A stretch of 64,000 bases of DNA from a bacterium (GCA_030649025.1 JAUSGO010000022.1:9023-73022), one strand, 5' to 3'. Shown: positions 42,546 to 64,000, counted from the stretch's first letter. Notes: generated by a model not told the origin, from the letters alone. A program made the numbers and translations.

Positions 42546-42590
42546 ACGTTCTGCGATTTTTTAATACTTATATTGTGGCACAAGAATTCT

Positions 42591-44465: not shown

Positions 44466-44584
44466 ATGAATGGCCCTAGTAATAAAATGCTCGACGGAGC
44501 GGTAAAAACTACCTTAATTAGCATACCACAAACTTCCTCGACATGCTTGGAACAAGAATATAACCCATAGGGTGCTTATATCCT

Positions 44585-45226: not shown

Positions 45227-45371
45227 GCGGGGGCTCCAACCCTCATTTTAACCGTTCGATGATATCCCGTCTAGAACTCATGTCTTTTTATGCGTGTTAA
45301 GATAAACAAAAACAGCCCACAGGGAGCCATTCAGGGTATTTGGACGAGTTTATCTCCGGTAACTACGCAAG

Positions 45372-46073: not shown

Positions 46074-46088
46074 GGTCGCGGATGAAGT

Positions 46089-46340
46089 CTATTTCGTTCT
46101 CTTGGAATGGATGAATTCCAATTTCTTATCCCGTCTTAAACTTTTTAGCCGGGCTTCTTTTTTTAACGCCGTGCTTCGAGAACCGCAACGCTCGGCATAT
46201 AAAATTTTTTTAACCCCATGCGACCTGGTATAGCGTCCCCCTTTGCCCTCTTTATGCTCGGCAAATCTCCGCCTGACGTCGGTGGCGATACCGGTGTAAA
46301 TACTGCCGTCTTTGCATCGAATAAGATAGACGGAATACAT
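46089..46340 (-). CDS. GIY-YIG nuclease-family small protein (UPF0213/YhbQ-like)
   Basis: YSVYLIRCKDGSIYTGIATDVRRRFAEH...R...K...E. Confidence 0.65.
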   Translation of the reverse strand: MYSVYLIRCKDGSIYTGIATDVRRRFAEHKEGKGGRYTRSHGVKKILYAERCGSRSTALKKEARLKSLRRDKKLEFIHSKRTK

Positions 46341-46344
46341 ACTT

Positions 46345-47307: not shown

Positions 47308-47333
47308 AGGTTTGTTTTTTGGATGGGTCCTTC

Positions 47334-47359
47334 AAAAACCGCCCGAAGGGCGGTTTTAA
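47334..47359. terminator. Hairpin plus T-run (terminator-like) 28 nt upstream of the obgE start codon
   Basis: aaaaaCCGCCC-gaag-GGGCGGtttta, a GNRA-type tetraloop. Confidence 0.45.
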
Positions 47360-47733
47360 ATACAAAGTAGTGTTAGGCGGCCATGCTTTTTAGCTTCTCC
47401 GCGGAAAGCGAGGTAAGCCACAGAAGAAAAGGTCTGCGAAGCCTGTCGGTAGGCCACAGGTCATTTTTGAACAATGACGCTTTTTCTATCCGGAAGGAAG
47501 ATAGCGCAACCATGGTTGTCTGCAAATTTGGCGGCGATAGCCTGTTATGGTCTGCTAAAAATTGCTCCTTGTTTGTCATAGGGAATTGCCGATTTTGAAT
47601 CTTTTGCTTCTGTACCCATCATACACGTATCCTGCGAATAATCAAGCTCGTAAGCACCCCAACAGCCATTCCGCCTAAAGTATCCGAGGGATAATGCACC
47701 CTCGCAATGTTGCGTCTGGCTCTGTGGCTTTTT

Positions 47734-48990: not shown

Positions 48991-49123
48991 ATAAAACATA
49001 TAATCAAATAAGTTCTTCCAGCATAACAAAATTCCGGGACTTATGCGAGCTCCGGAATCTTAAGAGCATGCACCACGCATGCCGCGCAGATAAGCCCGAT
49101 ATCCTTGTCATGCTGCACCGATC

Positions 49124-50182
49124 TTATTTCCCGCACGTGAAATCCAACGTGCTTTGTTTGCATGAGCAGAAATATTTGATGCCCTGGTCCGATGTCTGCC
49201 CCAGGCAGTATCCTGTGTTGCACTCTCCCCCGTGCGCGCATTCCTGCCCGGCCTTCTTGGTGGGCCCCGTTTTAGTATCCACGGTGATGGTTTCGGTGCA
49301 GAAATCAAGCGGAGGTGCCTGGTTTCCGCGCGGACGGTCTCCGTCAAATGCGCACCGCTGGGGTTTCAATTCCTGCGGATTTGTTTTGCAGGGCTTGGCG
49401 CAAACAACGAGGCCGTTATCCTGGCACAACACGGCGGTGGCAAAACGCGAATCCATGGCGGTAACGCAAAAGTGGTCTGCCGCGGCAAGCGCTCCGCACG
49501 TCACCAGTTTCTTGTTCTGCTGGTAGAATTCGCATACATACGAGTCCACCGGCACATCCGTTTCAACCGTGCCCTGCGGTCCCTGCACTTTCACGGTTAC
49601 ATGCTTCTCTTGTTTTATGGTAAGGCGTGCGAGCTTTTCTCGGAAGAAGTCAAAAGCGCGCGCGACCGTACTACGGAAACTTCCCCACCATCTTCCCGGG
49701 ACATTCCATAAATTTTTTGTGCCACCTGCTGGCTTCACAACCTCAACGACCTCATCTCCCGGAGTGCACTCAACATACATCTCCCGATACAAATCTCCTA
49801 TCTGCGTTGCGCAGTCCGCGTTCACATTACAATTCGGGCATATGTGGCAGGTATTTTTCTCGTTTCCGCACACGCCCCCCTGCGGTGCGCCATCGCAATA
49901 AAACCCAGCCTTGCTCCCATTCATATCGCTCTTTTTTGCCGCACCAGGATGCGTAGCCATACACACGTCGGACGTAAGGGCCGTATACCCAACACAGGTT
50001 TTTCCTAATGCGACACAGACTTCGTTGCCCGAATCCATCGTGGCATCCTGGGAAGTTACCACATAATACGTCTTGCCGTTATACGGCACCGACTGGGGCT
50101 CGGCCTGGGCCAAAAACCCGATGCCCAGCACCCCAATAAGAACAATAAAAACAAAACTGGCAAACCAAAATGTTTTTTTCAT
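49124..50182 (-). CDS. Secreted cysteine-rich hypothetical protein
   Basis: A signal peptide (MKKTFWFASFVFIVLIGVLGIGFLAQA) and more than 30 Cys in a 352-aa mature region. Confidence 0.45.
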   Translation of the reverse strand: MKKTFWFASFVFIVLIGVLGIGFLAQAEPQSVPYNGKTYYVVTSQDATMDSGNEVCVALGKTCVGYTALTSDVCMATHPGAAKKSDMNGSKAGFYCDGAPQGGVCGNEKNTCHICPNCNVNADCATQIGDLYREMYVECTPGDEVVEVVKPAGGTKNLWNVPGRWWGSFRSTVARAFDFFREKLARLTIKQEKHVTVKVQGPQGTVETDVPVDSYVCEFYQQNKKLVTCGALAAADHFCVTAMDSRFATAVLCQDNGLVVCAKPCKTNPQELKPQRCAFDGDRPRGNQAPPLDFCTETITVDTKTGPTKKAGQECAHGGECNTGYCLGQTSDQGIKYFCSCKQSTLDFTCGK

Positions 50183-50320
50183 AATACCGAGGATAAATAA
50201 TATATGATTATATATGCCAGTATAGCAGACCGTGCATCCTTAAGCAATGAGGAAAACTATAAAAAAAGCCGGGCTTTCGCGACCCGGCTTTCGGAATTAC
50301 AAAAATCTCAACAAAAGACA

Positions 50321-50773
50321 TTAGAACATTTTCTTGCCAAACGCATTCCAGCGCTGCCAGAGGTGCCACGCCGTAGCAAGATACAAAAGTCCGACAACAA
50401 AAAAGATGATGCGGCCCGATACAATCGACATGCCGAGGTTCTTTCCCATAAGACCTGTCAAACCCAAATTAATGCCCGATACAACACTCACAAAAAATGC
50501 GATTTTATCTTTTTGATCCGTTTCGCCAAAAAGCTTCATACCACTCGTGTTCCAGCGAAACAGCATATACGCCGATGCCGCGCCCGATACTATCCACGCC
50601 AGGGTTAAAAGCGAACTCAAGGGGCTATAGAGGCCGGGAAAAGGGTTAAATGCCAGTAAGGGCGGAACTCCGCCGATAAAAAGAGCTAGAGACGCTACAA
50701 CAAGACGCGCCTCCGACCACATGAAGCTGTAGTATTCAAGCTTCGCCGGATGCGTAAGTTCTTTAATGTTCAT
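50321..50773 (-). CDS. Hypothetical membrane protein (4 TM)
   Basis: A hydrophobic 150-aa ORF. Confidence 0.35.
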   Translation of the reverse strand: MNIKELTHPAKLEYYSFMWSEARLVVASLALFIGGVPPLLAFNPFPGLYSPLSSLLTLAWIVSGAASAYMLFRWNTSGMKLFGETDQKDKIAFFVSVVSGINLGLTGLMGKNLGMSIVSGRIIFFVVGLLYLATAWHLWQRWNAFGKKMF

Positions 50774-50855
50774 ATATATGTATTATGAAATAATGTTCCC
50801 CATGATAGCACGCGCACCCACACCTCTGTCTACTCCGGAATGTTGTACAAGACTT

Positions 50856-51608
50856 CTAGAAATTTCCGGCAGTCGGCAACGCGGAACTCTCAACTGCAGG
50901 ACGAAAACTTTTGCCTACGGCAAGGCCCGCGATCGAGCCGAAGATGGCTCCCGCAAGAAACTCCGAAAACCAATGGATGCCGACAGTGGCAACCCCGATG
51001 CCGACATAGAACGCATAGAGAAGAGCAAGAATGCGGACCATCCGGTTTTTCGGAAAAAGCGCGATAAGCGCGCAAGCGACCGCGAAAGAAACCGTGGTGT
51101 GGCTCGACGGCCAACCCCAGAACACTCCTCCCCGTAGAAATCCGAACCTAAAATTTTCGCTGATGTCCACCAGAGCGCTTCCATCAAAAAATTTCGGTTG
51201 CATCCGGCCGGTGAATGCCTTGTAGAACCAAGAAAGAAAAAGTCCTACAAGCGCCGCCTGTCCCATGGCGCCCGCAATAAGCACAATGCCGCTTCTCTCT
51301 CGCCATTTTCCATAGAAGTACATGCTAAGCGGAACAATAATGGGGAGAAGGCCGCCAAGTACCAGTGCGGGCACGAAATACGATCGAACGCTTGCATGCT
51401 GTGCTGCCACGTAATAGTTCCAGTCAAACCCCGAGGTGACGCATATCCATGTAAGCGCTATCGCAAGAGCGTGCCACGGCAGAATCCGCGGACGGAAGCA
51501 CGCGGCAGCATTTCTCCAGAAGCCCCGGAAGAGAGTGCGAAAGAGGAAAAATTCTTTCGGCAATTCATTCGGCCTTCCGTGTTCATTTAGTTTACCGTTG
51601 TTGTCCAT
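50856..51608 (-). CDS. PAP2-superfamily phosphatase (membrane)
   Basis: A PSSHTT (PSGH-like) motif and a C-terminal HWFSEFLAG (SRx5Hx3D-like) motif, about 6 TM. Confidence 0.6.
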   Translation of the reverse strand: MDNNGKLNEHGRPNELPKEFFLFRTLFRGFWRNAAACFRPRILPWHALAIALTWICVTSGFDWNYYVAAQHASVRSYFVPALVLGGLLPIIVPLSMYFYGKWRERSGIVLIAGAMGQAALVGLFLSWFYKAFTGRMQPKFFDGSALVDISENFRFGFLRGGVFWGWPSSHTTVSFAVACALIALFPKNRMVRILALLYAFYVGIGVATVGIHWFSEFLAGAIFGSIAGLAVGKSFRPAVESSALPTAGNF

Positions 51609-51726
51609 ACCACACAGTGTATCTCTTTTCCCCTGCCCGAACAACGTGATGCTCTAAAACGCGGGCGAGGCGAGTGTGGCCCATGCCGTGAAGGAAAAGT
51701 TCGAAAAGCGGATCCGCGATCAGCTA

Positions 51727-51755
51727 TTGACTAATATATTAAGATGCGGTATAAT
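51727..51755 (+). promoter_or_regulatory. Consensus sigma70 promoter (TTGACT-17-TATAAT) plus AAGGAGG RBS for 51794..52402
   Basis: TTGACT at 51727..51732, a 17-nt spacer, TATAAT at 51750..51755, AAGGAGG about 8 nt before the ATG. Confidence 0.65.
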
Positions 51756-51793
51756 CTTATCAGCAGTACGTTGAAACTGATAAGGAGGCTGAA

Positions 51794-52402
51794 ATGCGAC
51801 GGATAATCGCAACAATCGCTGTTTTGTTTTTTATTCAGATTGCCGTAGCATTTCCCGCGAAGGCGGAAAAACTGCGGCATACCACCACCCCGGCCACTCC
51901 CGTCTGGAAGCAGGTCGGACGTCAGGCTCTTTGGCTGGTGAATTGGGACTGGAAATTGGCTCTGGGCGGATGGACCGTGCGGTTTCATCCTGGGCGGCTC
52001 GACGTTCTCGGCATTACTACGCTGGACGAGAGCCGAGTGGATATTTGGGTCCGGCGAAAGCAATCACCGGAGTCGGTGGCAGGGACGATAGTGCATGAAC
52101 TTGCGCATGCATTCGACCACAAGTATCTTACTTTCGATATGCGCAAGGCTTGGATTGCTGCGCGAAATTTGCCGCCGGACACCCGGTGGTATACGCCGTG
52201 CAGCGGTTGCCGCGACCGCGGTTTATGCGACGATTGCGCGGACTATCATTTTGGGTCCGGCGATTTCGCGGAATGCGTAAGTTGGACACTGCAGGGACCA
52301 GCTTACGAATTTCAGAGTCTCCTTGGGCCGCCGCCGAACGAAGCGCAACAGGCGCTTATCCGGCAGTGGCTTACGGAATTGCCTCAAGCGGGCGGAAAGT
52401 AA
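51794..52402 (+). CDS. Secreted putative zinc metallopeptidase-like protein (HExxH)
   Basis: A signal peptide (IAVLFFIQIAVAFPAKA) and GTIVHELAHAFDHKY. Several Cys are present (CSGCRDRGLCDDC). Confidence 0.45.
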   Translation: MRRIIATIAVLFFIQIAVAFPAKAEKLRHTTTPATPVWKQVGRQALWLVNWDWKLALGGWTVRFHPGRLDVLGITTLDESRVDIWVRRKQSPESVAGTIVHELAHAFDHKYLTFDMRKAWIAARNLPPDTRWYTPCSGCRDRGLCDDCADYHFGSGDFAECVSWTLQGPAYEFQSLLGPPPNEAQQALIRQWLTELPQAGGK

Positions 52403-52505
52403 TTCTCCGCCCGTTTTTTATTGAGGTTCTCTTTACTTTCTTATTTAACAAAATAAGCAAGTAAAGAGATGAACAATGGTCTGGCGGATAATGGGAAAGG
52501 CAATA

Positions 52506-53759
52506 TCAGGCATGACTGCCCGCCACGTATCCGGTGGTCCAGCACAATTGCAAAGAGTAGCCGCCGGAGGGACGGCGCACGTGCAGAAGGTCTCCGGTGA
52601 TGTAGAGATTATCGAAAAGCAGTGAGCGCATGGTCTTCATATCCATCTCTTCCAGCACCACGCCTCCATCCGCCACGACAGCCCGGTCAAACCCCATAAG
52701 ATGGGTGATGGTAAGCGGCAAGGCTTTCAGCGTGCGTGCTATCAGCTTTCGTTCTTCTTTGGTCACGCTGTGTACTTTTTTCTTCTCATCTATTTTGGAA
52801 AGAAGTTTTAAAAGATGGGTAGATGTGCCTGGGGGCGCTATCTCTTTAAAAACATTCTTCAGGTCCCTGTTCTTGTTCGCATCAAACGCCTTCCGTATGC
52901 GCTCATCCAACGCCCCCAAGTCGAGCTCCGGAAATGCATCAATGATGGCGGTTGCCGTTCCTGCCTGAAGCATATCTCCTACTTTGTCGGCGCTATTTAA
53001 TATGATGGGGCCGGAAATTCCAAAATGCGTGAATAGCAAACTGCCAGTGCGCGAAAACTGTTTTTTGCCTTCCACAGAGAACGTGATTTTCATGGATTTG
53101 AGCGTTACGCCCGCAAGCGCCTTCACCCATGCCTCGCGGACTGCCAGAGGCACAATAGTGGGCGTTGGCGCCTTCACTTTGTGCCCCAGGTCTCTTAACC
53201 ACGCAAAGCCGTCTCCCGTTGAGCCCGTCTCGGCGTGCGACATGCCGCCTGTAGCAAGAATGATCGCTCCTGCTGTATACGAAACCGAGCCGCACTGTAC
53301 GCCCAAAACCTTCCGGCCATCCGTATTAATACGCGTTGTCTTCGCTTCCGTGCACACCGTCACCTTACCGTCGCGAAGATATGTTTCGAGCACCCGGAAT
53401 ATATCAAGCGCTTTTTGCGTCTTGGGGAAAGCGCGTTTGCGGTCTTCCACAACTAACGGAAGCCCCCGCGATTCAAAAAACTTGAAAGTGCTCTCAACGC
53501 CAAATTGCGAAAATGGCGAGGGCAGAAAACGCCCGCCGTTGCCGTAGTGCGCGAGAAGCTTGTGCGTATCAAATTCCGCGTTGGTGACGTTGCATCTGCC
53601 TCCGCCCGTGATTTTTAGTTTTTCACCAAGACGCTTATTCTTTTCCAGAAGCAACACGCGCTTGCCTCTTTCGGCCGCGCGTCCGGCCGCCATCATGCCC
53701 GATGCCCCGCCTCCAATGACAATGACATCGAATATTTCCTGTCTCATTTTTATCAGCAT
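52506..53759 (-). CDS. HI0933/YhiN (BaiN)-family FAD-dependent oxidoreductase
   Basis: DVIVIGGGASGMMAAGRAAERGKRVLLLEKN (dinucleotide-binding) and GGGRCNVTN motifs, and an HI0933-like C-terminal domain. Confidence 0.7.
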   Translation of the reverse strand: MLIKMRQEIFDVIVIGGGASGMMAAGRAAERGKRVLLLEKNKRLGEKLKITGGGRCNVTNAEFDTHKLLAHYGNGGRFLPSPFSQFGVESTFKFFESRGLPLVVEDRKRAFPKTQKALDIFRVLETYLRDGKVTVCTEAKTTRINTDGRKVLGVQCGSVSYTAGAIILATGGMSHAETGSTGDGFAWLRDLGHKVKAPTPTIVPLAVREAWVKALAGVTLKSMKITFSVEGKKQFSRTGSLLFTHFGISGPIILNSADKVGDMLQAGTATAIIDAFPELDLGALDERIRKAFDANKNRDLKNVFKEIAPPGTSTHLLKLLSKIDEKKKVHSVTKEERKLIARTLKALPLTITHLMGFDRAVVADGGVVLEEMDMKTMRSLLFDNLYITGDLLHVRRPSGGYSLQLCWTTGYVAGSHA

Positions 53760-53809
53760 ACGCTCATCTCTACTACTTGCCTATTTAACAATATAAGCAA
53801 GTAGATGAA

Positions 53810-55261
53810 TTAGGCTTCCAGGTCGAGCGTTTGGTCAATACGTATCTGACTCACAAATTCCGGTACGTGGCTTACCAGTATCATGGCTCCCGTGTAGGCA
53901 TCTAAAGCCTTGGCAATAACGGGCAAGTGGCGGAAGTTCATATGATTCGTAGGCTCATCCAGGATAAGCAGTCCCGGTTTCTGCAGTACCAGCCGTGCCA
54001 GCGACACCAAGCCTTTCTGGCCCTCCGAGAGACTGCCTACTTTGGCCTTAATGGCCTCCGAGTTTATTAAAAATCCCGCGGCAACGGAGCGGAGCTTTTC
54101 TTCGTCCACTTCATTTGTTGCCGACGCGAGCGACTGATATACCGTGTCTTCCGGCTTCAGCATAGAGAAATCCTGGCGGTAATATCCCACTTTCACGCCC
54201 GAAGTAATATGGGCCCCTTTTGCCGTGCCGTGCGCCAGAGACTCAAGCAGAGTGGACTTACCAATGCCGTTGGGACCTATAAGAAGCAGATGTTCATTTC
54301 TGCGAAGCGAAATATTAGTTTTCTTTGTGACCACTTTGTGGTTTTTCATGAGAGAAAACGAAGTCACCGACAAAAGCTCCCCTGAAACTTCAATGTCTGC
54401 CGGAATGGCGAAGGGACGGATGGTTTTGTCTTCCTTGCGCACATCAACCTGCTCTTCTTCAAGTTCCGCGGCTTTCTCGCGCATACGTTTGGCAAGCAAT
54501 CGCAATCGTCCTCCCTTCATGGCAAAAAAGTTTGCCTTCTCTTTTTTCTCTATTGCCTCCTTGGCAAGTCGCGCATTCTTGCTGTTCTCTTTTTCGATGC
54601 GCACAGCTATTTGCGCCACCACATCGAAATAGTTTCCAATATAATTTTCCAGAAAGTGCGTGAATACATCCAGATAGAGCACGCCCTGGGTGAATGCATT
54701 CAAGAAATCAGCGTCATGTGAGATGACAATGCATGTGTTGGGGTAGCCAATAATGAACTTGGTGAGATGCGCAATGCCCGCCTTATCCAGATTGTTGGTC
54801 GGCTCGTCCAAAAGCAGAACATCCGGTTCCTGGATAAGTGCCGCGGCAAGTAGCAGCCGCGCCTGCTGGCCCCCGGAGCACGCCGTAATCCGCCGCTCAA
54901 GGGGTACCGATAAATTCACTGCCTCCAGCGCCGAGGCTATGCGCGGATCGATATCGTATATTTTTTTTGGGAACGACCTCTCAAAAAATTCCCGTATCGT
55001 GAGCTTCAAATATTCATGCGGCATGGCCTGCTTTGCTAGGGCGACAGTAAGTTCGGAGTCCACAATAACCTTGCCACGGTCCGGACGGAGTTCTTTCGTG
55101 ATGAGATGGAACAGCGTGCTTTTGCCCGCCCCATTCTGTCCCATCAGGGTCAACTTCGCGCCGCGTCTCACGCTAAAACTCACCCCTTCCAAAATGGGTT
55201 TATGTGGCCCTCGCTCGAACGAGACCTCTTCAAATCGCATAATAACTTCGTTTTTAGCCAT
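53810..55261 (-). CDS. ABC-F family ATPase (tandem ABC domains with no TMD; an EttA/Uup/YheS-like translation factor)
   Basis: Two Walker A motifs (GQNGAGKST; GPNGIGKST), two signatures (CSGGQQARLLLA; LSEGQKGLVSLARL), and a charged inter-domain linker. Confidence 0.75.
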   Translation of the reverse strand: MAKNEVIMRFEEVSFERGPHKPILEGVSFSVRRGAKLTLMGQNGAGKSTLFHLITKELRPDRGKVIVDSELTVALAKQAMPHEYLKLTIREFFERSFPKKIYDIDPRIASALEAVNLSVPLERRITACSGGQQARLLLAAALIQEPDVLLLDEPTNNLDKAGIAHLTKFIIGYPNTCIVISHDADFLNAFTQGVLYLDVFTHFLENYIGNYFDVVAQIAVRIEKENSKNARLAKEAIEKKEKANFFAMKGGRLRLLAKRMREKAAELEEEQVDVRKEDKTIRPFAIPADIEVSGELLSVTSFSLMKNHKVVTKKTNISLRRNEHLLLIGPNGIGKSTLLESLAHGTAKGAHITSGVKVGYYRQDFSMLKPEDTVYQSLASATNEVDEEKLRSVAAGFLINSEAIKAKVGSLSEGQKGLVSLARLVLQKPGLLILDEPTNHMNFRHLPVIAKALDAYTGAMILVSHVPEFVSQIRIDQTLDLEA

Positions 55262-55484
55262 ACAGGATTGCCGCTGTAGACAGCAAACTCTATAGTTCTA
55301 GACTCCCAGTTCTGAACCGCAAAAAACGGCAGTTTTTGAATTTCATACTTCAGAACCCAATTTTAAATCAAAAAGCCCGTGTTTACGCTGAAACCGGTGT
55401 TTGCGGGTATAGTAAAAGCACATCAAATACCGTTTTATATATCTCCTTTTACGAGCGGGGGTCTGGGACTATGCTAAAATGGGA

Positions 55485-58436
55485 CTATGCGGCTACTGCT
55501 TCCAGCGATTTGTCCGAAGGCATACTAAATAAATCTGGCCTTGCATCCCGCAATTGTTTAAGCGCGAGGTTCGCCGCCGTGAGGGTGGCGTAGTTTCTGA
55601 ATGGCGCGGAAGCATCTGCCGCGCCTCCGGTATTATGGTGAGCTTTTTCATGTATGTATACATCAGCAGCATGCTCCATGCCTGCAGCCAGAGTAGACCT
55701 GTGAAGATGGATTGAAAATCCATCGCTAAAACCAGCGGCAACGACCTGACCGGCCTTTTTTGCTTTATATACTCTGATCTCCGATGGCCGGTTATTGGGC
55801 AGGTAGACATCAATGGCAGTAAGTGTTTCTAAAAGTTCTTTTTCTTCTGTGCTTAATTCTTCGTTCGGAATATGTTCCACATCGGTCATTTCACGTAGTC
55901 GATCCATATAGGTTGGAAGGCCAACTGTCTCAAGCGCCGAACAAACCGCCGAGGGGAAAGTAACAAGTTCCAGTCCCACGTGTTGATTCTCATGCATTGC
56001 GTCAAAGTCTTGGGATCGGACATCGCGTATGGCGGTATTTTTTCCAAACATTTCTTGAAAAACACGTTTCCATGTCTCCCCATCTTTTGGCCAGAACTTT
56101 GTTTCGAATTCGAGTTTTTCCGCACCGCTCCAATTTTGACCTGCGGAATTTGCTTTGAATAAAAACTGTCTGATGGCATCCGGCGCGCTAAGTTCTGATA
56201 ACGCATTCCCGATGAGTGGTTCCAATTCATCTTTTGCAACCTGCCGACGATCCCGATTTTTTATCTCAAGGTTAGGGAAATGATAGCTGAAGAGTAAGCT
56301 ATGCTGGCCTGGTATAAGAATCTGCTTGACATAGAGCATTCCTCCGTCGAGAGATAATATATCTCCCACAGATGTCCTTTGTACCGGCTGGAGTCGTTCA
56401 AAAGAAAGTATCTTTGTATCTATGTTACGGAACTCTTGAACAAGTTTTTGCGTTGGGTTTTCGAAAGTTGTAGAGCTCGACTGATACCGTTGCTCTGTAT
56501 CATCGTCGGGCAATTTACCCTTTACGCCATGCGTTATCCGGTACACCACTCGGTCTACGCGTTTATCGCCAATTTCCTGTTGCTGGACTTCTGGTTTGGC
56601 AACCCATTGCTGGGAACGAAGCACCATCTCGTTGCCGCTTCGGAGTGCCGCGGCAGACACCATTTTAAGTCCTTCACCGAATTTTCCTGCACTTTCTGAT
56701 CCTCCCTTGGTTGATTGTAATACACCGAGCCAGCGGTAGTCGTAGCCCCGTCCGTCATCGTATATCTTCAGGGCCGCTATCTGATCGCTAGCATAATCTT
56801 TAAATTCGTCATGGGAGTGCCATTTATTATCTCTTGTTTTAAAGCGGAGACCGAACATCGTTCCTCCCGAATCTCTTGGAAGGTGATTCTGCGCAGCGTC
56901 AAGTAACATGCGCTCCTCGTTCCATAATTCTTTTCCGTATTCAAGCGTCAAAGAGGTCGGCAGTATCTCCTCATATGAATCGGGTGTAGACTCCTTGTCG
57001 CTCTTAACGCCGGCTACAAGAAGCGCGTTTTTTAGTGCGTATGGGAAATTTATCCTTTTTAGGGGCTTATTCTTGAAAATCTCCGGAATTTCGTAATCAG
57101 TCTCAATAACCGCATCTTCACCAAATGCTTCATGGAAAGCAGTTTTCCATGCTTCCGGGTATTGTGGCTTGAGATGGTATAAGGAGCACTCCAGCGCATT
57201 CGGATTGAGCTGGCTTTTCTTAAGGAGGGTTTTAATAATGTTCTTGCGTGAAAGTTCCGACAAAACCGTTGCTATTTTTCTATCAAGGTTATCTGTGATG
57301 ATGGCATCCCGATCGCGATTTGTTTCTGCGTCATCAAAGTTATAGGAGAGCAGGGAGTCCTCGGTTGTCACCTGAATGCCTTTTACAAAAAATCCGCCTG
57401 GTTCCGTATCCACAATCTGCCCTGTCGTACCGATAAATGCCGGCCGATAATTTTCCCGAAGAGCGAGGACCTTTTTCTCCATGCCCAGAACCTCGCGCAC
57501 AAAAGGTTTCGTAGGATGTCGAAAGGTCGTTCGGGAACCGACCATGGGCTTTCCATCAAGATATTGGACGCCGAAGGAAAGCTGCTCTACCGGCTGTTGT
57601 TTTTGATGCCGCGTATCGTGGAAAGTAACCGGCTTGGCCATTGGTTTTGCGAGCCAATTCTGGGATTCATACTCCAAGTTGAGTCCCTCCCGAAGCGCTG
57701 CTGCCGCTACCATTTTCATTCCTTCGCCAAATTGCCCACGCGATTCTTGTTCGCCAGATTTTGTTGAATAGAGTAATGCAAGGCTCTTTGCATCAAAGCC
57801 CACACCATCGTCCACGAAACGCACGGCTTCAATTTTCTCCGGTTCAGCCCTAGCTTCTACCAAAGAAACCCACTCGCCATCTATCTGGCATTGCACCCAC
57901 ACGCGCTCACCCTTGGAATCGGTTGGCAAGTGGTTTTGTACGCCATCAAGACAGACTCTCTCAACTCCCCAATGCTTTTTCTCATAATCAAGCGTGAGAG
58001 AAGTATCGAGCGTTTCTTCACGCTCGATTTTTTCAGGCCTTTTTTGATTCAGAATTTCGTCATCAGCAAATTCCGGTGCATGTTCTACGACACGATCAAT
58101 ATGCCGCAGTTGCCGTAATGTGGCGACAGCTTTTTCTGCCAAAAGATAAGAACGGCTAGAGACGCCGTACTGCGGTATAGACTCTCTCCTTCTTCTAAAA
58201 GGCGGGATTGAGCGAAGCGTTGTTTCGAGATACGACTTCCACCTTTCCAGAGCAGTTTCCTCTTTCTCGCGATGTTCGGGTGCGTAACGATCGGTAAGTT
58301 GCAGTACGCGAGTTAAGCGCAAACGGTCCCGATCGTCAAGGTTGCCATGCTCAAGAAATTCCAGCATTTCAGTTCGTGATGACTCAAGCGTTTTTTGAGC
58401 TTCAAAAAATTGAGCTTCTGTGCGTGAATTTTCCAT
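55485..58436 (-). CDS. Large protein with two tandem Hsp90/MORC-type GHKL ATPase modules and a C-terminal HExxH motif
   Basis: Module 1: LDGVQNHLP (N-box-like), VRFVDDGVGFD (G1) and TKSGEQESRGQFGEGMKMVAAAALR (G2). Module 2 repeats this with LDAAQNHLP, IYDDGRGYD and TKGGSESAGKFGEGLKMVSAAALR. YIHEKAHH lies near the C-terminus. A terminator lies upstream, so it is probably monocistronic. Confidence 0.5.
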   Translation of the reverse strand: MENSRTEAQFFEAQKTLESSRTEMLEFLEHGNLDDRDRLRLTRVLQLTDRYAPEHREKEETALERWKSYLETTLRSIPPFRRRRESIPQYGVSSRSYLLAEKAVATLRQLRHIDRVVEHAPEFADDEILNQKRPEKIEREETLDTSLTLDYEKKHWGVERVCLDGVQNHLPTDSKGERVWVQCQIDGEWVSLVEARAEPEKIEAVRFVDDGVGFDAKSLALLYSTKSGEQESRGQFGEGMKMVAAAALREGLNLEYESQNWLAKPMAKPVTFHDTRHQKQQPVEQLSFGVQYLDGKPMVGSRTTFRHPTKPFVREVLGMEKKVLALRENYRPAFIGTTGQIVDTEPGGFFVKGIQVTTEDSLLSYNFDDAETNRDRDAIITDNLDRKIATVLSELSRKNIIKTLLKKSQLNPNALECSLYHLKPQYPEAWKTAFHEAFGEDAVIETDYEIPEIFKNKPLKRINFPYALKNALLVAGVKSDKESTPDSYEEILPTSLTLEYGKELWNEERMLLDAAQNHLPRDSGGTMFGLRFKTRDNKWHSHDEFKDYASDQIAALKIYDDGRGYDYRWLGVLQSTKGGSESAGKFGEGLKMVSAAALRSGNEMVLRSQQWVAKPEVQQQEIGDKRVDRVVYRITHGVKGKLPDDDTEQRYQSSSTTFENPTQKLVQEFRNIDTKILSFERLQPVQRTSVGDILSLDGGMLYVKQILIPGQHSLLFSYHFPNLEIKNRDRRQVAKDELEPLIGNALSELSAPDAIRQFLFKANSAGQNWSGAEKLEFETKFWPKDGETWKRVFQEMFGKNTAIRDVRSQDFDAMHENQHVGLELVTFPSAVCSALETVGLPTYMDRLREMTDVEHIPNEELSTEEKELLETLTAIDVYLPNNRPSEIRVYKAKKAGQVVAAGFSDGFSIHLHRSTLAAGMEHAADVYIHEKAHHNTGGAADASAPFRNYATLTAANLALKQLRDARPDLFSMPSDKSLEAVAA

Positions 58437-58508
58437 ACAGTTATAGTATAGCAGAAATTCAATAATATTTCCAGCGGCGATTCAAAGGTAGTGGCCCCTT
58501 TGTCGGAT

Positions 58509-58543
58509 CAAAAACCAAAAACAGTCTCCAAGAGGCTGTTTTT
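58509..58543 (-). terminator. Intrinsic terminator after the NDT-like gene (minus strand)
   Basis: Minus-strand reading: AACAGCCTC-ttgg-GAGACTGTT-tttggttttt. Confidence 0.5.
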
Positions 58544-58592
58544 CATCGTGCGCGCGGAGAAGACGCCGGAAAAATCATAGGGCACCGATGAT

Positions 58593-59054
58593 TTATGCGC
58601 GGACAAGTGACACGATGTGGTCTATCGCAGTGGCAAGGTCCGAATACTGCGGAATGCCGTACCGCTCGCAGACGATGTCGACATTGCCCTTCCGCCAAAA
58701 GCCGTCGGGACAGACGACCATCAGTTTGCCGCTTTGCGCATAGAGCCCCATTTCCAAAAGCGAAATGGGAGATTTGGTATTCGGGTCAAAATACATGACA
58801 ATATGATCGCTTTTTGCAAGAGCATCAAGTTCCCACTCGACTTGCGCGCGAAAAGCAGGATTGTCTTTTCGCTGTTCCCAGGTTGCGTCCCAACCATCCC
58901 GCCGCGGGTTCAGCAGAACCACCATTTCATCCGTAAGTTTTTGCACGACCATAGCCTGCCAATGTTCCGCAGTATCCATTTCAATGCTTCCTGCAAGAAA
59001 AATCTTGGGGTCGGTGGTTTCCGGTATCTGCTGTAGTGGTTTTATTTCAAGCAT
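58593..59054 (-). CDS. Nucleoside 2-deoxyribosyltransferase-like (DNPH1/Rcl-like) protein
   Basis: KIFLAGSIE (compare YFCGSIRG) and SPISLLEMGLYAQSGKLMVVC (compare the catalytic-Glu motif S.G.GYELG.A...K.I). Confidence 0.45.
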   Translation of the reverse strand: MLEIKPLQQIPETTDPKIFLAGSIEMDTAEHWQAMVVQKLTDEMVVLLNPRRDGWDATWEQRKDNPAFRAQVEWELDALAKSDHIVMYFDPNTKSPISLLEMGLYAQSGKLMVVCPDGFWRKGNVDIVCERYGIPQYSDLATAIDHIVSLVRA

Positions 59055-59169
59055 AGTACCTATGAAGCCCGATTGTAAGCTTTCTTTAAGCCCCCAATAA
59101 ATTTCTTAATTTTAATTACTTTTAAGTTTCCGTCTATGCTGCGGGAACCATTTTGAGAGAAATAATCGC

Positions 59170-60066
59170 TCATCTTAAGAGATTATGAGGAAAATTACCG
59201 AATCTTCTTTTGATGAACATCGGTACGGAGTGAAAGAAATGGATCCATGCCCTGAGATAGTGCTTTTTAACATAGATATTCTCGTTGCGCATGACCAGGA
59301 GACCGAATATCGCCAGGATTGTTTCTCGATAACGATCATGGTTATTTGTGCGCAGAGTTTCCCGCCATAGCGTTATAACCCTTTCGTTTTCAGGAATATC
59401 GAGAATGGTTTCTACGGAAAAAAGAGACTTCGTTCCCAGTACGCTGAATATTTCATGTGCATCCGGGTTGCCGATGGTGAGGTACTTGCCTTTGTAGGTG
59501 CAAAATATTCTTGGAAAAGGATCGTTCCCCGTTCGATCCTCTATAAAAAACGGAAGGTTAATGCGGCGCTCATCCAATTCTTTCTTTAAGCGCTTAATTT
59601 GTTTCTTCCCGTAATAATCGACGACGAAATGCTTGGGATGCGGGACAATGATTATCATCTCTCGCTTGTGCGAAATGTAATCCAGGAGCTCTCCTTCGGT
59701 AAGATTCGCGAAAATTTCTTTATTGGGCAGAATCCGATGATGAAGTTTTTCGATACTGGCCTTCAAGTCGTCATGATCTCCAAAAGTCAGCAATTCCCTT
59801 CTTGTCACCAGCTTCAATATGCCGTCGGCTAGCCCCTTTTTTATTTTCCACTGAATGCCCGGGACGACAAGTACCTTTTTTGTGGAAAAACTCATTGCCT
59901 GGTCTATCAATAACGGAACTACATTGTGGTCCGATATCCCCAAAATCGCATATTCATTTTCCTTTAATATTTTTTCTAAATATGCCACATACTCCTGAAC
60001 GGTAGTCGAGCTGTCATGAGATCTATCCGAGTGAACATGAAAAAGAAAAAAGAGACGCTGATTCAT
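59170..60066 (-). CDS. PHP-domain (polymerase/histidinol-phosphatase-like) metal-dependent phosphoesterase, in an AT-rich region
   Basis: An N-terminal FLFHVHSDRSHD (HxH...D, PHP motif I) and later His/Asp ligands (VPHPKHF, GNPDAHE). Confidence 0.5.
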   Translation of the reverse strand: MNQRLFFLFHVHSDRSHDSSTTVQEYVAYLEKILKENEYAILGISDHNVVPLLIDQAMSFSTKKVLVVPGIQWKIKKGLADGILKLVTRRELLTFGDHDDLKASIEKLHHRILPNKEIFANLTEGELLDYISHKREMIIIVPHPKHFVVDYYGKKQIKRLKKELDERRINLPFFIEDRTGNDPFPRIFCTYKGKYLTIGNPDAHEIFSVLGTKSLFSVETILDIPENERVITLWRETLRTNNHDRYRETILAIFGLLVMRNENIYVKKHYLRAWIHFFHSVPMFIKRRFGNFPHNLLR

Positions 60067-60209
60067 GAAATAATTCTATCATGGTCTCATAAATATGTTT
60101 ATGTTTGTCAACTGCGCTGACTCATGCGGGCGATTTAGGACGGTGCGGGAAAATTCTTGATGACCACAATGGATTTATTCAAAATAAAAAGTGCCGGTAT
60201 TGGTGGCAC

Positions 60210-60419
60210 TCACAGGCGTCCGTAGCGTCTGTAGATAGCATTTCGAGGGATACCGAAGAATGGGGTTGCGCCAGGCTTTAGTGTCACGGGGATCTCGTTT
60301 CGAATAACCCCGAACGTGTGTCCTTCGAATTTGTAGACCACAGTTCCGGCCCGAAGGTCTTTCTTTAAGCCGGATTCTTCTTTGGCGACTTTACGCAAAA
60401 GAACTAGTTTTTCCGCCAC
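60210..60419 (-). CDS. Hypothetical small protein (GTG start with GAGGAG RBS)
   Basis: 69-aa ORF lying downstream of a consensus minus-strand promoter at 60623..60651. Confidence 0.3.
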   Translation of the reverse strand: MAEKLVLLRKVAKEESGLKKDLRAGTVVYKFEGHTFGVIRNEIPVTLKPGATPFFGIPRNAIYRRYGRL

Positions 60420-60582
60420 GGGATTTCTCCTCTCGATGAATTTTTTAGGATTTCAATTTTATTTTTAGAATAGCAGACATTGTAAGTCCCGTAAAGCTCC
60501 CTGTAGATATTTTTTTCGAGCAGGGGAATGGAATAGAACAAAATGGGAACCTTTTTAACGCCCTTTCTCTAAAAAGTTTTTA

Positions 60583-60622
60583 CCCCGTCCAGCGCTAGCA
60601 GCCGGACGGGGTTTTTGTTTTT
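60583..60622. terminator. Bidirectional terminator-like hairpin
   Basis: aaaaagttttta-CCCCGTCCAGC-gctagca-GCCGGACGGGG-tttttgttttt. Confidence 0.55.
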
Positions 60623-60651
60623 ATTATACTCCTCCTTCTAAAATTTGTCAA
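60623..60651 (-). promoter_or_regulatory. Consensus sigma70 promoter on the minus strand (TTGACA-17-TATAAT)
   Basis: The reverse complement reads TTGACA-aattttagaaggaggag-TATAAT. The transcript would begin in the adjacent hairpin. Confidence 0.55.
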
Positions 60652-60702
60652 GGTCTTAAGGTGCCGGATTTAAACTCGAATATAAATTATAGATTGCCAT
60701 AT

Positions 60703-61482
60703 TTAGAGCATGGATGCGGGTGTTCGCGTAAAGCGCCAGGGCAAAAAGATTTCTAGGCCGACAAGAATCAGGAACGATCCGAGCGCGCCCCAAAAACCCG
60801 CATATCGCATAGTATGTGCAAGACCGTTGCCCTTCTTGAGGATTTCAATATCGGTAACATAGACGACTTCACAGGCGCCATTGCCGGTGTCGGTGCGCGT
60901 AGTGCTGGTGTTTCTTGTGTAGAGCGTCTGGCCGCCTTTCATCTGTACGCGATAGTCTGCCAGGTACCCTTGCACGCGAACCTGGTCCCCGATGATTACG
61001 TTTCGTATGCGGTGGGCGACGTTCTCATCGGCAGGAATAAGATGGTTATTGGACCCCGAAAGACCGCTAAATGGAGGGGAGAAATCCTGTTCCCAGCGCC
61101 CAAAACAAGTAAACTCTCCGCTCGAGAACTTCACTTTTTTGTACGCCCCGCTTTTGATATTATCACCCCATACGACGCAAATATCTTTCATATTCCCCGG
61201 ATCGTTCTTATGCGTAAAATCAAAAATATTGTCGGCATCGTACAGCGATACTACCAATCCATAGAGCTCATAGCTGTAGTGCGGCATGAGCGTGTAGGCA
61301 TATCCTTTGATATCAATCTTGTTCGGCTCCACGACAACCGCCTCCTGTTTTGGCTCGTTCTCAAGCACCGCCGGAAGAATCTCGGCAGTACTGGGAAGGG
61401 CGGGTTTATAAAAGAAAGAGCCTGCGTAAGCAAGGAGCGAGATGTAAAGCATGCCTTTAAATGCCCGCGTGAGAAATTTCAT
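60703..61482 (-). CDS. Hypothetical exported protein (N-terminal signal/TM, C-terminal TM)
   Basis: 259-aa ORF. It overlaps the upstream gene by 4 nt. Confidence 0.4.
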   Translation of the reverse strand: MKFLTRAFKGMLYISLLAYAGSFFYKPALPSTAEILPAVLENEPKQEAVVVEPNKIDIKGYAYTLMPHYSYELYGLVVSLYDADNIFDFTHKNDPGNMKDICVVWGDNIKSGAYKKVKFSSGEFTCFGRWEQDFSPPFSGLSGSNNHLIPADENVAHRIRNVIIGDQVRVQGYLADYRVQMKGGQTLYTRNTSTTRTDTGNGACEVVYVTDIEILKKGNGLAHTMRYAGFWGALGSFLILVGLEIFLPWRFTRTPASML

Positions 61483-62060
61483 TTAGAGATTTGTTGTGAA
61501 CTGCGCAGCGTCCGGATCGCAATTGCACCGTCTATAAGATACACCACCAACAACCCATTCACGGCCAGGTTCCCTCCGGACAGCATCTCTGGTGTCGTGA
61601 GAAACACATATATCTTATTTCCGACAAGATACGCAATGAGCGCAATGGCGCTTGCAAGGTTCCGCCTGTATATGCCGTAGGCAAGCGCAAGAATAATAAA
61701 CGCATCAACGGCCGCATAGGATTCGATATATCCCGTCACAACAGCTCCGAGCATGACAAGCCCGGCAAGCACCGCGGCAATGAATGCATTTCTGACTTTC
61801 TTCTCAAGCTTTCTCTGATTCACCTGGTCTAGGGCAGATGTGTCGCTTTCCCCGCCCGTCAACGTCGGCGCGCGGCTTGCAAGGCGTACCCCGAAATCTG
61901 CATGCTCTTGGGTGAGTTGAGGCGAAAGCGGGCTCGGTGCTGAAAATGTCGCCGGGGGCTCTGGTGCCAAAGTCTGAAGAAAAGGGTCTACCATCTTGCC
62001 GCAACTCCAACATTCCTCGCCCGCCCGCTTGATAACTACTCCGCAGTTGTTGCAATTCAT
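61479..62060 (-). CDS. Hypothetical membrane protein with an N-terminal zinc-ribbon (CxxC...CxxC)
   Basis: MNCNNCGVVIKRAGEECWSCG, then 3 TM helices. Confidence 0.4.
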   Translation of the reverse strand: MNCNNCGVVIKRAGEECWSCGKMVDPFLQTLAPEPPATFSAPSPLSPQLTQEHADFGVRLASRAPTLTGGESDTSALDQVNQRKLEKKVRNAFIAAVLAGLVMLGAVVTGYIESYAAVDAFIILALAYGIYRRNLASAIALIAYLVGNKIYVFLTTPEMLSGGNLAVNGLLVVYLIDGAIAIRTLRSSQQISK

Positions 62061-62146
62061 ATTTGTTTAGGCCCCACTATTTAATATTTATGATATCAAT
62101 ACTCCTCGAACGCACTCACCTATCACAAGTTGGCTTCCACGGACGG

Positions 62147-63655
62147 CTATTCGAGCGGGATTCCTGTCAGGTATGAATCTCTGTCGAAGCTATTAATCTC
62201 GTATACGGCGTCCCAATCATACCCAAGCCTCACAAAAGCTTCTGCCGTTTTAATCCATCGCTTTTCTCCAATATCTCCGCTTGGATACAGCCTGTACACC
62301 TTGGGGTCTTGCGCAACCGTTGCCCGTACAAGATCGGAGATTGCAAATGTATCCACCGCTGTCCGTGTCACCGTGATGACATTTTCCCAACGAAGATGCC
62401 CGTAACTATTAAATACTTTTGGGCTCAAGATAAGACGTTTGAATTGTTTGCCATTTTTATACTTCACGATATATACGTCTATATCCCCGGCCGCTCGTAT
62501 CAATGCACCTTCCGTAATAGCGGGAGAACTGCTTGTCCAAAGGGGGTGGGCCGCAATAAATGCCCGCGTTGCGCTCCCGTAGTGTCCGTCCGGCGGAGAG
62601 ATGCCCGCCGCCACCTGAAATTCCACGAGAGCCGCTTTCGTTATCACGCCAAAATAACCGGTCGCACCCGCGTCGGCAAGGCGCAAGGCGGCAACACCCG
62701 AATCAGCTTGTATCAAATATTTCTGGAGCGCCACGACCGCGGCGCCCGATGAGCCAATATCCAAATCGCTTATAGGAAGAGAGCCTCCCACACTTCCCGT
62801 CGTCGGTATGAACGCGAGAGCGTCCATAATAAGCAGGGGCAACGTAATATTGCCGGCGATGGCGCTGATAAATACGCCACGGAAGTTCGTCACAAGAAAC
62901 CGCGACAGTGCAATACTGTCGGAAGTTTGCGCGAGAATTACGGAGAGATACCCTATTTTTTCTTGAAGCGAGAATTCTCCCGTCAGGCGCGGGAACGGGT
63001 CCACCGGCGTGCCGGAGCTGTTGTGTATCTCAAAGTGGAGATGCGCCGGTCCGCCCGAAGCGTTGCCGGTATTGCCTACATAGCCGATAAGAGACCCTTG
63101 AGCGAGTACCAGTCCGGAAACCACGCCCTCCCCGATGCGATCGAGATGATAATAAACAAATGTCTCGCCTCCGGGATTTGCCGTGTACACCGCGATTCCC
63201 TCGCTTGCGCCCGCATTCGTGCTTGTGTGCGTAACGACGGCATTGGTCGGCGAAATAATGGGCGTACCCTTAACGGCCATGATGTCTTCGCCTTCGTGCG
63301 TGCGTGCGCCGCCGTCACGCGGGTCACCAAAGTTCGGCTCGATGTCTTGGACCCCCACGCCAAAAAGTACCGGCATCATCACAACGGTACTGGCCGTGTC
63401 GCCTAACGCGCTGATTTTTTGCTGTAAACCGCCCGACTGCTCCCGATATTCCCGTATTCTTCGCTGGCGATCGCCTAAGGGCTCGCTTGAACCATCATAC
63501 TGCAACCATGTTTTTGAAGTGGTCGCGGTATAGCTTGATGAACGTCTTGTCCGTGCCGCCGTCACTGCAGGCAGCACCGCAAACGCGAACAACAGGATCA
63601 CAACCGCATAACACGCGGCATGCTTCAGAAATTTTCCATTGAGAGGGACCCTCAT
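62147..63655 (-). CDS. Peptidase M23 (LytM-type) with a peptidoglycan-binding domain
   Basis: HEGEDIMAVKGTPIISPTNAVV...GNTGNASGGPAHLHFEIH (M23 HxxxD / HxH motifs). GAAVVALQKYLIQ...YFGVITKAALVEFQ (PG_binding_1-like). An N-terminal signal anchor. Confidence 0.7.
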   Translation of the reverse strand: MRVPLNGKFLKHAACYAVVILLFAFAVLPAVTAARTRRSSSYTATTSKTWLQYDGSSEPLGDRQRRIREYREQSGGLQQKISALGDTASTVVMMPVLFGVGVQDIEPNFGDPRDGGARTHEGEDIMAVKGTPIISPTNAVVTHTSTNAGASEGIAVYTANPGGETFVYYHLDRIGEGVVSGLVLAQGSLIGYVGNTGNASGGPAHLHFEIHNSSGTPVDPFPRLTGEFSLQEKIGYLSVILAQTSDSIALSRFLVTNFRGVFISAIAGNITLPLLIMDALAFIPTTGSVGGSLPISDLDIGSSGAAVVALQKYLIQADSGVAALRLADAGATGYFGVITKAALVEFQVAAGISPPDGHYGSATRAFIAAHPLWTSSSPAITEGALIRAAGDIDVYIVKYKNGKQFKRLILSPKVFNSYGHLRWENVITVTRTAVDTFAISDLVRATVAQDPKVYRLYPSGDIGEKRWIKTAEAFVRLGYDWDAVYEINSFDRDSYLTGIPLE

Positions 63656-64000
63656 ACAACTCAATTGTAGCACAGTAATGCAACTGACATAAGATGTTAT
63701 CACTTCTTGGCGCTTTTCACATAAGCGGGAGATTCTACTTTTTCCATTATATTGCGCGATTACAAAAATAGCGTTATATCTCTCAACAAAACACCCACCT
63801 ACATATATAAACCCAATTTTGCCGCAGTTGGCCAGAATGGTTTTCAGCGATATGTGATTTTAGGATTTACAGATAAAAATCTTTATGTGTTAGAAAGTCT
63901 TTTTTTATGGGAATGCGACCTATGTGTTTGGTGAGCGCTGGGAAGAACTCTCTAAGAAGACAAAAGCCGAAATTTTAAATGAGGGATCTCATCAGGAAAG

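Follow-up and report, generated by a model that had tools for sequence, protein, structure and literature searches.

A stand-alone protein of a candidate phyla radiation bacterium combines tandem GHKL ATPase modules with a predicted C-terminal zincin domain and belongs to a widespread family

Introduction

What might one bacterial polypeptide do with two tandem ATP-binding modules of the GHKL superfamily and a HExxH peptidase motif behind them? This question is raised by an open reading frame (ORF) of 983 codons in a 64,000-nucleotide stretch of bacterial DNA (GCA_030649025.1 JAUSGO010000022.1:9023-73022), the whole of which we refer to as the window. The source organism is an ultra-small bacterium of the candidate phyla radiation (CPR), and the ORF product is 100% identical to an entry from a metagenome-assembled genome (MAG), ‘hypothetical protein Q7S09_03035 [bacterium]’, which is its sole name. 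The initial annotation, drawn up from the nucleotide sequence, described an apparently monocistronic gene for a protein with two duplicated GHKL modules of Hsp90/MORC type and a putative zincin motif, and compared it with sacsin-type repeats and with proteins of bacterial defence islands.

Our analysis shows that the parts of this protein come from known superfamilies and that neither their combination nor the family has been described. A literature search found no description of a GHKL–zincin fusion, and database labels were limited to ‘hypothetical protein’, a faint Pfam MPN635_N assignment and an unannotated PHROG. The combination of GHKL domain, middle domain and zincin is no one-off; it is a widespread unit in which the number of ATPase modules varies from one to three.

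Results

Internal duplication and conservation of the ATP sites

BLASTP alignment of the two halves of the protein (aa 1–480 versus aa 481–983) gave 36% identity over 359 columns (E = 2e-52; aa 140–477 versus 488–840); thus, the internal duplication that had been read from the sequence is real and far beyond chance. Each repeat consists of a GHKL ATP-binding domain followed by a middle domain of ~170 aa, and all Bergerat-fold motifs quoted in the initial annotation were recovered in both copies: motif I as LDGVQNHLPTD (N168) in copy 1 and LDAAQNHLPRD (N517) in copy 2, motif II as DDGVGFD at 209 and DDGRGYD at 560, and the lid/G2-box stretch as STKSGEQESRGQFGEGMKMVAAAALR and STKGGSESAGKFGEGLKMVSAAALR, respectively (Table 1).

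Conservation was measured on an alignment of 32 orthologs, in which both GHKL domains were the most conserved parts of the protein. The Asn of motif I was kept in 32/32 sequences in either module, the glycines of motifs II and III were invariant in both (DxGxG; G234-Q-F-G-E-G239 and G584-K-F-G-E-G589), and the two repeats shared one set of nucleotide-binding motifs across the orthologs, namely DxGxG, S-x-K, GxxGEGxK and S-x-T. The acidic residue four positions before the Asn, usually Glu, was Asp in 31/32 sequences in module 1 and 30/32 in module 2, and D560 was replaced by Asn in 4/32. Middle domain 1 contained invariant Y365, D375 and R376, in an NRDRN loop, with counterparts in middle domain 2 (Table 1). 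The Mg2+-binding Asn, the Gly-rich loops, the HExxH motif and D941 were invariant in proteins down to ~20–30% identity. The single-module relatives that we examined start directly at the GHKL domain and have no N-terminal helical region.

A zincin domain near the C-terminus

The protein had been said to end with YIHEKAHH; this motif in fact lies at aa 926–934, within a compact folded domain and some 50 residues short of the C-terminus. Two HExxH motifs were found in the protein, compared with 0.064 expected from composition. One of them, HENQH at 815–819, was rejected as a zinc motif and considered a chance match, since E816 is Gln in 20/32 orthologs. The other, HEKAH at 929–933, sits in a helix (920–935) of the full-length AlphaFold2 (AF2) model and not in a disordered tail, and was conserved together with the downstream Asp (H929 in 31/32 orthologs; E930, H933 and D941 each in 32/32).

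When the last 142 residues were modelled separately from a 29-sequence alignment, the predicted domain comprised a backing helix, a three-stranded sheet, the HExxH active-site helix and a long C-terminal helix. Comparison of this model with the PDB by Foldseek bore out the suspected zincin: the top 22 matches were all zinc metallopeptidases, the best being proabylysin (E = 1.6e-2, probability 0.99), and selecase, BepA, HtpX, ZMPSTE24 and serralysin were also matched. The zincin profile searched against PDB sequences pointed to the NleC-like toxin Aip56 (E = 0.092), as well as to proabylysin and WLM; the family stretch DVYvHEKTHxNTGAxDAS was aligned with ALIHEIVHHVTGSSDT of Aip56, and the core motif HExxHxxTGAxD with HEIVHHVTGSSD. 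The related effector GtgA binds zinc through H182, H186 and D193, and its Asp is located in the loop following the active-site helix (PMC6166728). The window protein belongs to the same class of HExxH-to-Asp spacing, HExxH-x6/7-D. Among the 182 relatives with a zincin domain (see below), HExxH was followed by an Asp in 169; counted from the second His, this Asp stood at +7 in 114 relatives and at +8 in 32, the window protein being one of the latter. Model and fold matches identify the C-terminal domain as a real zincin-fold domain and a predicted metallopeptidase.

The modules form a separate GHKL family

In Pfam, the window protein matched HATPase_c below threshold (E = 0.09), and the NCBIfam model of the sacsin ATP-binding region (NF047352) reached 16.8 bits, its cut-off being 50 (E = 0.007), over aa 203–245 only. 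Orthologs exceeded the HATPase_c_3 gathering score of 25 bits, with 31.2, 30.5, 28.6 and 55.9 bits; the last value came from the most divergent ortholog tested, with three matched stretches. The AF2 model of the full protein, built on the alignment of 32 orthologs, had a mean predicted local distance difference test (pLDDT) score of 82.6 and a predicted template modelling (pTM) score of 0.56. Its confidence was low exactly at both lid segments, for instance around aa 227–229, which we take as the predicted mobile ATP lid.

Foldseek comparison of this model with the PDB ranked the Hsp90 N-domain first (E = 3.8e-4, probability 0.99), followed by sacsin SR1 (5v46; E = 4.5e-3, template modelling score 0.38), TRAP1 and MutL, whereas matches to histidine kinases and PDK were far weaker, with probabilities of 0.13–0.23. 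Comparison of the whole-family and GHKL-domain profiles with PDB sequences gave non-significant matches to Topo VI-B (E = 0.08–0.14) and MORC2 (E = 0.9) across the DxGxG...SxK...GxFGxGxK lid, and the profile of the middle domain found no recognisable relative among PDB sequences. The modules are GHKL domains of the Hsp90/MutL/MORC/Topo VI-B type and not of the histidine kinase type, in agreement with the initial annotation; its narrower assignment to Hsp90, sacsin or MORC did not hold at these scores. None of the three outcomes that would have refuted the initial annotation was seen, since GHKL domains were recognised, the two modules matched each other and the HExxH is conserved within a zincin helix.

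Membership in each of the better-known families was rejected. No Pfam or NCBIfam HSP90 model matched, and the score for the sacsin repeat (NF047352/SRR) was below its cut-off. MORC/paraMORC proteins were set aside on the E-value of MORC2, on the middle domain, which consists of a beta unit and a helical bundle, and on the lack of defence association; the absence of an S5-fold in this domain was judged from secondary structure only. For histidine kinases, there was neither a HisKA match nor a response regulator in the neighbourhoods, and for T4 rIIA, a relationship suggested by the viral fold search, hhalign against the family profile gave a probability of 0.3%. The modules constitute a separate GHKL family, outside Hsp90, sacsin, MORC, rIIA and histidine kinases.

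Architectures and distribution of the family

A database search retrieved 64 full-length relatives of 970–1090 aa, nearly all of them unnamed proteins from Patescibacteria/Parcubacteria MAGs, and a profile search against 1.84 billion cluster representatives returned 4,662 matches at E ≤ 1e-3, 2,191 at ≤ 1e-10 and 428 at ≤ 1e-30. Scoring 210 retrieved relatives with separate hidden Markov models for the GHKL, middle and zincin domains revealed a zincin in 182; two modules with zincin were present in 102/210, one module with zincin in 43 and three modules in ~21. In nearly all, the zincin directly followed the last middle domain with no module behind it; the order, (GHKL–middle)n and then zincin, is fixed in nearly all relatives. 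A few long relatives contained more sequence C-terminal of the zincin. The transglutaminase-like C-terminus of a relative from Peregrinibacteria scored 22.1 bits, below the Pfam cut-off of 23, and was not used as evidence.

Viral relatives were also found. PHROG 6077, which is unannotated, matched both modules (E = 1.4e-24), and the best matches in a viral structure library were uncharacterised phage proteins of 307–595 aa (E = 9e-22 to 7e-9), one of the best matches coming from a Sulfolobales filamentous virus. Moorella phage MTATph1 encodes a hypothetical protein of 446 aa, WPA89660, among genes for a helicase, dUTPase and SSB, which hhalign aligned with module 2 and the zincin of the window protein (probability 99.9, E = 8.7e-32), including LIHETLHKYSGARD. 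Because this protein spans just these parts, the ancestral, basic unit is one GHKL–middle module plus zincin (~450–600 aa); phages, archaeal viruses and DPANN archaea have this form, and the window protein is the duplicated version that Patescibacteria typically carry. A scan of IMG/VR with family patterns gave three loci, a pattern-limited number that says little on viral abundance.

Among GTDB species representatives, the family was found in Patescibacteria, DPANN archaea (Woese-, Pace- and Micrarchaeota), Omnitrophota and Elusimicrobia, and further in some Clostridia, Melainabacteria, Desulfofundulus and an Aneurinibacillus megaplasmid; the scan used motif patterns, and several of the automatically assigned taxa seem doubtful. 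Five loci from MAGs labelled ‘uncultured Gammaproteobacteria’ encode proteins 56–60% identical to Patescibacteria orthologs, which makes the label doubtful, and many DPANN-like archaeal loci carry the label ‘uncultured Methanosarcinales’, which also looks unreliable. The two-module cassette also occurs in the middle of giant proteins, P0115/P0205 (6,439 aa; Omnitrophota) and P0209 (6,481 aa; Elusimicrobia). P0115 has a signal-peptide-like N-terminus, and fragments clustered with P0209 (Elusimicrobiota) are named M3 peptidase, GNAT and LOG family proteins at NCBI. Nearly all orthologs carry a precomputed ‘faint’ or ‘weak’ label of PF25856 (MPN635_N); in the literature, MPN635 is mentioned only as a non-essential gene of M. 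pneumoniae.

Genomic context

The window gene is flanked by a nucleoside 2-deoxyribosyltransferase (NDT)-like gene and an ABC-F gene. Inspection of ten loci one by one revealed wholly different neighbours, even for orthologs 60–75% identical, and the flanks were mostly housekeeping genes (DnaB/RecR/L21, GatB, L32/PlsX, RecG, ribosomal proteins). Clustering of all ORFs within 4–10 kb of the gene at 70 loci yielded no neighbour family in more than 7 of them, the most frequent being NUDIX (7), ABC ATPases (6) and RecG (5), and PADLOC-DB v2 gave 0 families for the window protein at E up to 1. On these results we rejected the idea of a conserved operon or defence island, and the defence-island setting suggested by the initial annotation was not borne out.

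The NUDIX genes lay within 5 kb of the family gene, some of them directly adjacent; rough reasoning put this frequency at no more than about two-fold over expectation, and the link was rejected as evidence. Together with the NDT-like neighbour, they may reflect a weak link to nucleotide-processing enzymes, or chance. In four Clostridia MAGs, a conserved ORF of 114–167 aa lies directly downstream of the two-module homolog, touching or overlapping its stop codon, and may be a lineage-specific partner. At another locus (L009, 3929..5881), a GatB homolog of 650 aa contains an apparent PDDEXK_3 nuclease-like insertion between two GatB_N segments.

The gene and its flanking elements

The ORF product is a 112-kDa protein with an isoelectric point of 5.7 and is predicted to be soluble. 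Scans for a signal peptide or transmembrane segment found none, and no neighbour family is conserved across the loci; the gene product is a self-contained, stand-alone cytoplasmic single-gene system. The promoter-like site upstream (Table 1) leaves 9 nt between the end of its -10-like TATACT and the ATG, and a Shine–Dalgarno sequence was not evident, which together suggest that the mRNA is leaderless or nearly so, with a very short leader. The hairpin behind the upstream gene is likely a terminator that isolates the ORF transcriptionally. The claim of a monocistronic gene gained from this hairpin and from the promoter-like site, but the hairpin was absent from the output of a consensus terminator scan; on sequence grounds, a separate, monocistronic transcript is plausible.

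As had been stated, 223 bp separate the ORF from the ABC-F gene, whose ATG is at 55261. The best NCBIfam model for this gene, ‘ribosomal protection-like ABC-F’, scored 322 bits, below its cut-off of 380. The NDT-like identity of the upstream neighbour was borne out by Pfam (Table 1), whereas the neighbouring ‘PHP protein’ is weakly supported at best: a 298-aa ORF gave a single weak NCBIfam match, to the TrlF N-terminus (E = 1.3e-4, 20.9 bits, aa 9–78), a region which we take to be a PHP domain, and no Pfam match. This ORF is enclosed in an AT-rich stretch (~59000–60500) with a G+C fraction of 0.41–0.43. Further upstream, a 518-aa cell-wall hydrolase with Peptidase_M23 and a peptidoglycan-binding domain is encoded, unrelated to the gene under study. 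Across the window (1..64000), scans for tRNA, transfer-messenger RNA and Rfam families at gathering threshold detected none.

Table 1 Features of the ORF and its surroundings, numbered from the first nucleotide of the window
Feature	Position	Strand	Residues	Evidence and remarks
Whole ORF	55485..58436	(-)	983 aa + stop	ATG start
N-terminal helical region	58047..58436	(-)	aa 1-130	four helices; AF2, lower pLDDT; least conserved part
GHKL (Bergerat-fold) domain 1	57507..58028	(-)	aa 137-310	motif conservation, fold matches, HATPase_c_3 in orthologs; D164/N168 (I); D209-x-G211-x-G213 (II); S224-x-K226 lid; G234-x-x-G237-E-G239-x-K241 (III); S301-x-T303 (IV)
Middle domain 1	56997..57506	(-)	aa 311-480	small beta unit and helical bundle
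GHKL ATP-binding domain 2	56457..56978	(-)	aa 487-660	motif conservation; D513/N517; D560-x-G562-x-G564; S575-x-K577; G584-x-x-G587-E-G589-x-K591; S654-x-T656
Middle domain 2	55914..56456	(-)	aa 661-841	invariant Y718, D729, R730; holds HENQH 815-819
Minimal zincin metallopeptidase domain (predicted)	55488..55913	(-)	aa 842-983	AF2 pLDDT 94.4, pTM 0.84
Predicted zinc site	55614..55652	(-)	H929-E930-K-A-H933-(x7)-D941	motif HExxHxxT(G)GAxD; near-invariant
Promoter-like site	58445..58473	(-)		TGGAAA-17-TATACT with TG extension (extended -10); consensus match only
Hairpin and U-tract 3' of the NDT-like gene	~58509..58543	(-)		-12.1 kcal/mol, z -2.3
NDT-like gene, upstream neighbour	58593..59054	(-)		Pfam Nuc_deoxyri_tr2, E 1.6e-35
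ABC-F gene, downstream neighbour	53810..55261	(-)		
ORF with TrlF N-terminus match	59170..60066	(-)	298 aa	
Cell-wall hydrolase gene	62147..63703	(-)	518 aa	

Discussion

A possible ATP-driven clamp with a peptidase

We propose that the two GHKL–middle modules act as an ATP-driven clamp that gates or drives the C-terminal zinc endopeptidase within a single chain, a reading to which we assign a probability of about 0.45. From the domain identities, the conservation of motifs, the order of domains and the lack of partner genes, we infer a cycle in which ATP hydrolysis and clamp closure would be coupled to proteolysis of a substrate. ATP would be bound at both Bergerat-fold sites, with N168/N517 holding Mg2+ and D209/D560 contacting the adenine; the GxxGEGxK lids would shut over the nucleotide, and D164/D513 would serve as general base. 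Well-studied GHKL ATPases other than kinases contact the gamma-phosphate through a side chain of the domain that follows, a Lys or, in Hsp90, an Arg, and R376/R730 of the middle domains would sense it in the manner of R380 of Hsp90 or the transducer Lys of MutL and GyrB. Sacsin keeps the Arg that contacts the gamma-phosphate (PMC3629688). Since the GHKL–middle module is duplicated, the two GHKL domains may close on each other within one chain, like the N-terminal gate of dimeric GHKL proteins, and the single-module relatives of phages and DPANN archaea would undergo the same closure as homodimers. ATP-dependent dimerisation of Bergerat domains is a property of GyrB, MutL, Hsp90, MORC and Topo VI-B, and the series of one, two and three modules fits a dimerising unit that was fused into a single chain. 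The cycle would then capture a substrate protein or expose the zincin active site, where H929, H933 and D941 would bind Zn and E930 would act as general base, and the zincin would cleave the substrate. Proteolysis would be the output, coupled to the ATPase cycle, because the zinc site is invariant, its position is fixed and partner genes are absent.

Several observations weigh against this proposal. The candidate general base is Asp and not the canonical Glu, so that hydrolysis is perhaps slow or absent. For the full-length model, pTM reaches only 0.56, which bears on the contact between the GHKL domains and on the placement of R376/R730, and the middle-domain profile shows no relation to Hsp90-middle or S5-fold transducer domains. 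The E-values of the fold searches are modest for both GHKL (3.8e-4) and zincin (1.6e-2), and the best fold matches of the C-terminal model did not include an NleC structure.

The main rival explanation reverses the roles: the GHKL modules would be the functional end, as a chaperone-like or nucleic-acid- or protein-remodelling ATPase, and the zincin would only process its own chain. Among polyvalent proteins, the most frequent hub domains are zincin-like peptidases, which have been proposed to process these proteins (PMC5512222), and the cassette does occur within the giant multi-enzyme proteins of Omnitrophota and Elusimicrobia. However, the stand-alone forms of 500–1000 aa hold nothing else to release, the zincin lies C-terminal to the last module instead of being interspersed between other domains, nor could a conserved linker or cleavage motif be made out; we regard autoprocessing as an unlikely purpose of the domain.

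Another explanation addresses the biological role and can coexist with an ATP-gated protease as mechanism: the protein could be a single-gene anti-phage defence or abortive-infection system in cells, and a counter-defence in phages, in which the clamp senses infection and frees the zincin as an effector, either toxic or protective. This is the MORC and defence-island idea of the initial annotation, reduced to one gene. A patchy distribution without synteny even between orthologs of 60–75% identity, relatives in phages and in one archaeal virus, a fold resembling the GHKL proteins of the phage rIIA type, and occasional neighbours such as GmrSD, NERD, MazE-PIN, patatin and NUDIX are what such a system might show. 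Against these stand the empty PADLOC search, the lack of any enriched neighbour family, flanks of mostly housekeeping genes (DnaB, RecR, L21, GatB, ribosomal proteins) and the hhalign probability of 0.3% for T4 rIIA, and we rate this specific role as improbable. A degenerate pseudo-enzyme scaffold that has lost activity at one or both ATP sites or at the zincin site could be read from the Asp at the general-base position in both modules and from the Asn that replaces D560 in some orthologs; it appears very unlikely, as the invariance of the Mg2+-binding Asn, the Gly loops, HExxH and D941 is hard to explain without catalysis or ligand binding. A signalling protein of histidine-kinase or protein-kinase type, to which weak HATPase_c matches and a Luteibacter phage relative annotated as ‘histidine kinase’ might point, is hardly credible given the lack of a HisKA/DHp or H-box domain and of response-regulator neighbours, the resemblance of the GxFGEGxK G2 box and S-x-K lid to the Topo VI-B/MORC/Hsp90 type, and the far weaker kinase fold matches compared with Hsp90.

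Biological role and meaning

For the ATP-gated protease that we propose, a conflict-related role, between host and parasite or virus and host, is probably to be favoured over one in core proteostasis, because the family is spread, without synteny, over viruses, episymbionts (CPR, DPANN, Omnitrophota) and giant multi-enzyme proteins. Tentatively, the cassette might represent an unrecognised class of GHKL-clamp ATP-dependent proteases that would form homodimers in viruses and DPANN archaea, would act as pseudo-dimers of one chain in Patescibacteria, and would serve ultra-small episymbionts and their viruses to cut specific proteins of hosts, rivals or invaders; we see this broader picture as possible, and not as the probable one. 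The family is large and unnamed and, among the sampled genomes, occurs mainly in CPR/Patescibacteria, DPANN, Omnitrophota and Elusimicrobia, plus phages and archaeal viruses, and its function may bear on the dealings of these episymbionts and their viruses with hosts. Because forms with one, two and three modules exist in nature, they offer a direct handle on whether GHKL dimerisation is the working stroke.

Comparison with known systems

With Hsp90 and sacsin, its best fold matches in the PDB, the window protein shares the Bergerat-fold ATP site and the G-x-F-G-x-G lid. Sacsin contains an ATPase and a following domain with a conserved Arg, repeated in tandem in one chain (PMC3629688), and the window protein likewise repeats an ATPase plus a domain with a conserved Arg. 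Unlike these proteins, it has Asp instead of Glu as candidate general base, a middle domain unrelated by sequence, no significant sequence match to either and no Hsp90 C-terminal dimerisation domain; a C-terminal zincin is found in the window protein, and neither Hsp90 nor sacsin has one. Topo VI-B, MORC and MutL share the succession of DxGxG, S-x-K and the G-x-F/Y-G-x-G-x-K lid, and are the nearest solved proteins by profile; HATPase_c_3 is the Pfam model passed by the orthologs. The differences from this branch are E-values of 0.08–0.9, S5-fold transducer, Toprim, CW and endonuclease domains that were not detected, and a family without restriction-modification or defence partners.

Likeness to T4 rIIA exists at the fold level only, the viral fold search listing many rIIA proteins (E = 1e-7 to 1e-4), whereas the sequence relation is negligible by hhalign; we know of no zincin domain in rIIA. 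According to the literature, the latter is a phage counter-defence protein in which a GHKL ATPase is combined with a C-terminal domain that varies (PMC7824862). On the peptidase side, NleC, GtgA and Aip56 resemble the C-terminal domain in having HExxH in a helix and an Asp 7–8 residues past the second His, in the loop leading to the next helix, as proposed third zinc ligand, and proabylysin and selecase resemble it in their minimal zincin fold of ~110–130 residues. The likeness to the former group, which we take to be M85-like in MEROPS terms, is limited by the marginal sequence match to Aip56 and by the absence of any NleC or GtgA chain from the top 40 fold matches. All five are secreted effectors or stand-alone archaeal peptidases and are never fused to ATPases.

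The closest functional analogy is FtsH, which combines an N-terminal ATPase with a HExxH zinc peptidase in one polypeptide and, as an AAA+ ATPase joined to an M41 zincin, is the precedent for ATP-coupled metalloproteolysis. The two are not homologous: FtsH is a membrane-anchored P-loop AAA+ hexamer with a zincin of another family, whereas the window protein would work through a GHKL clamp. To our knowledge, every characterised ATP-dependent protease pairs a P-loop AAA+ unfoldase with a peptidase, and, if the proposal is true, a GHKL clamp built into one chain with a zincin would be a different solution to energy-controlled proteolysis.

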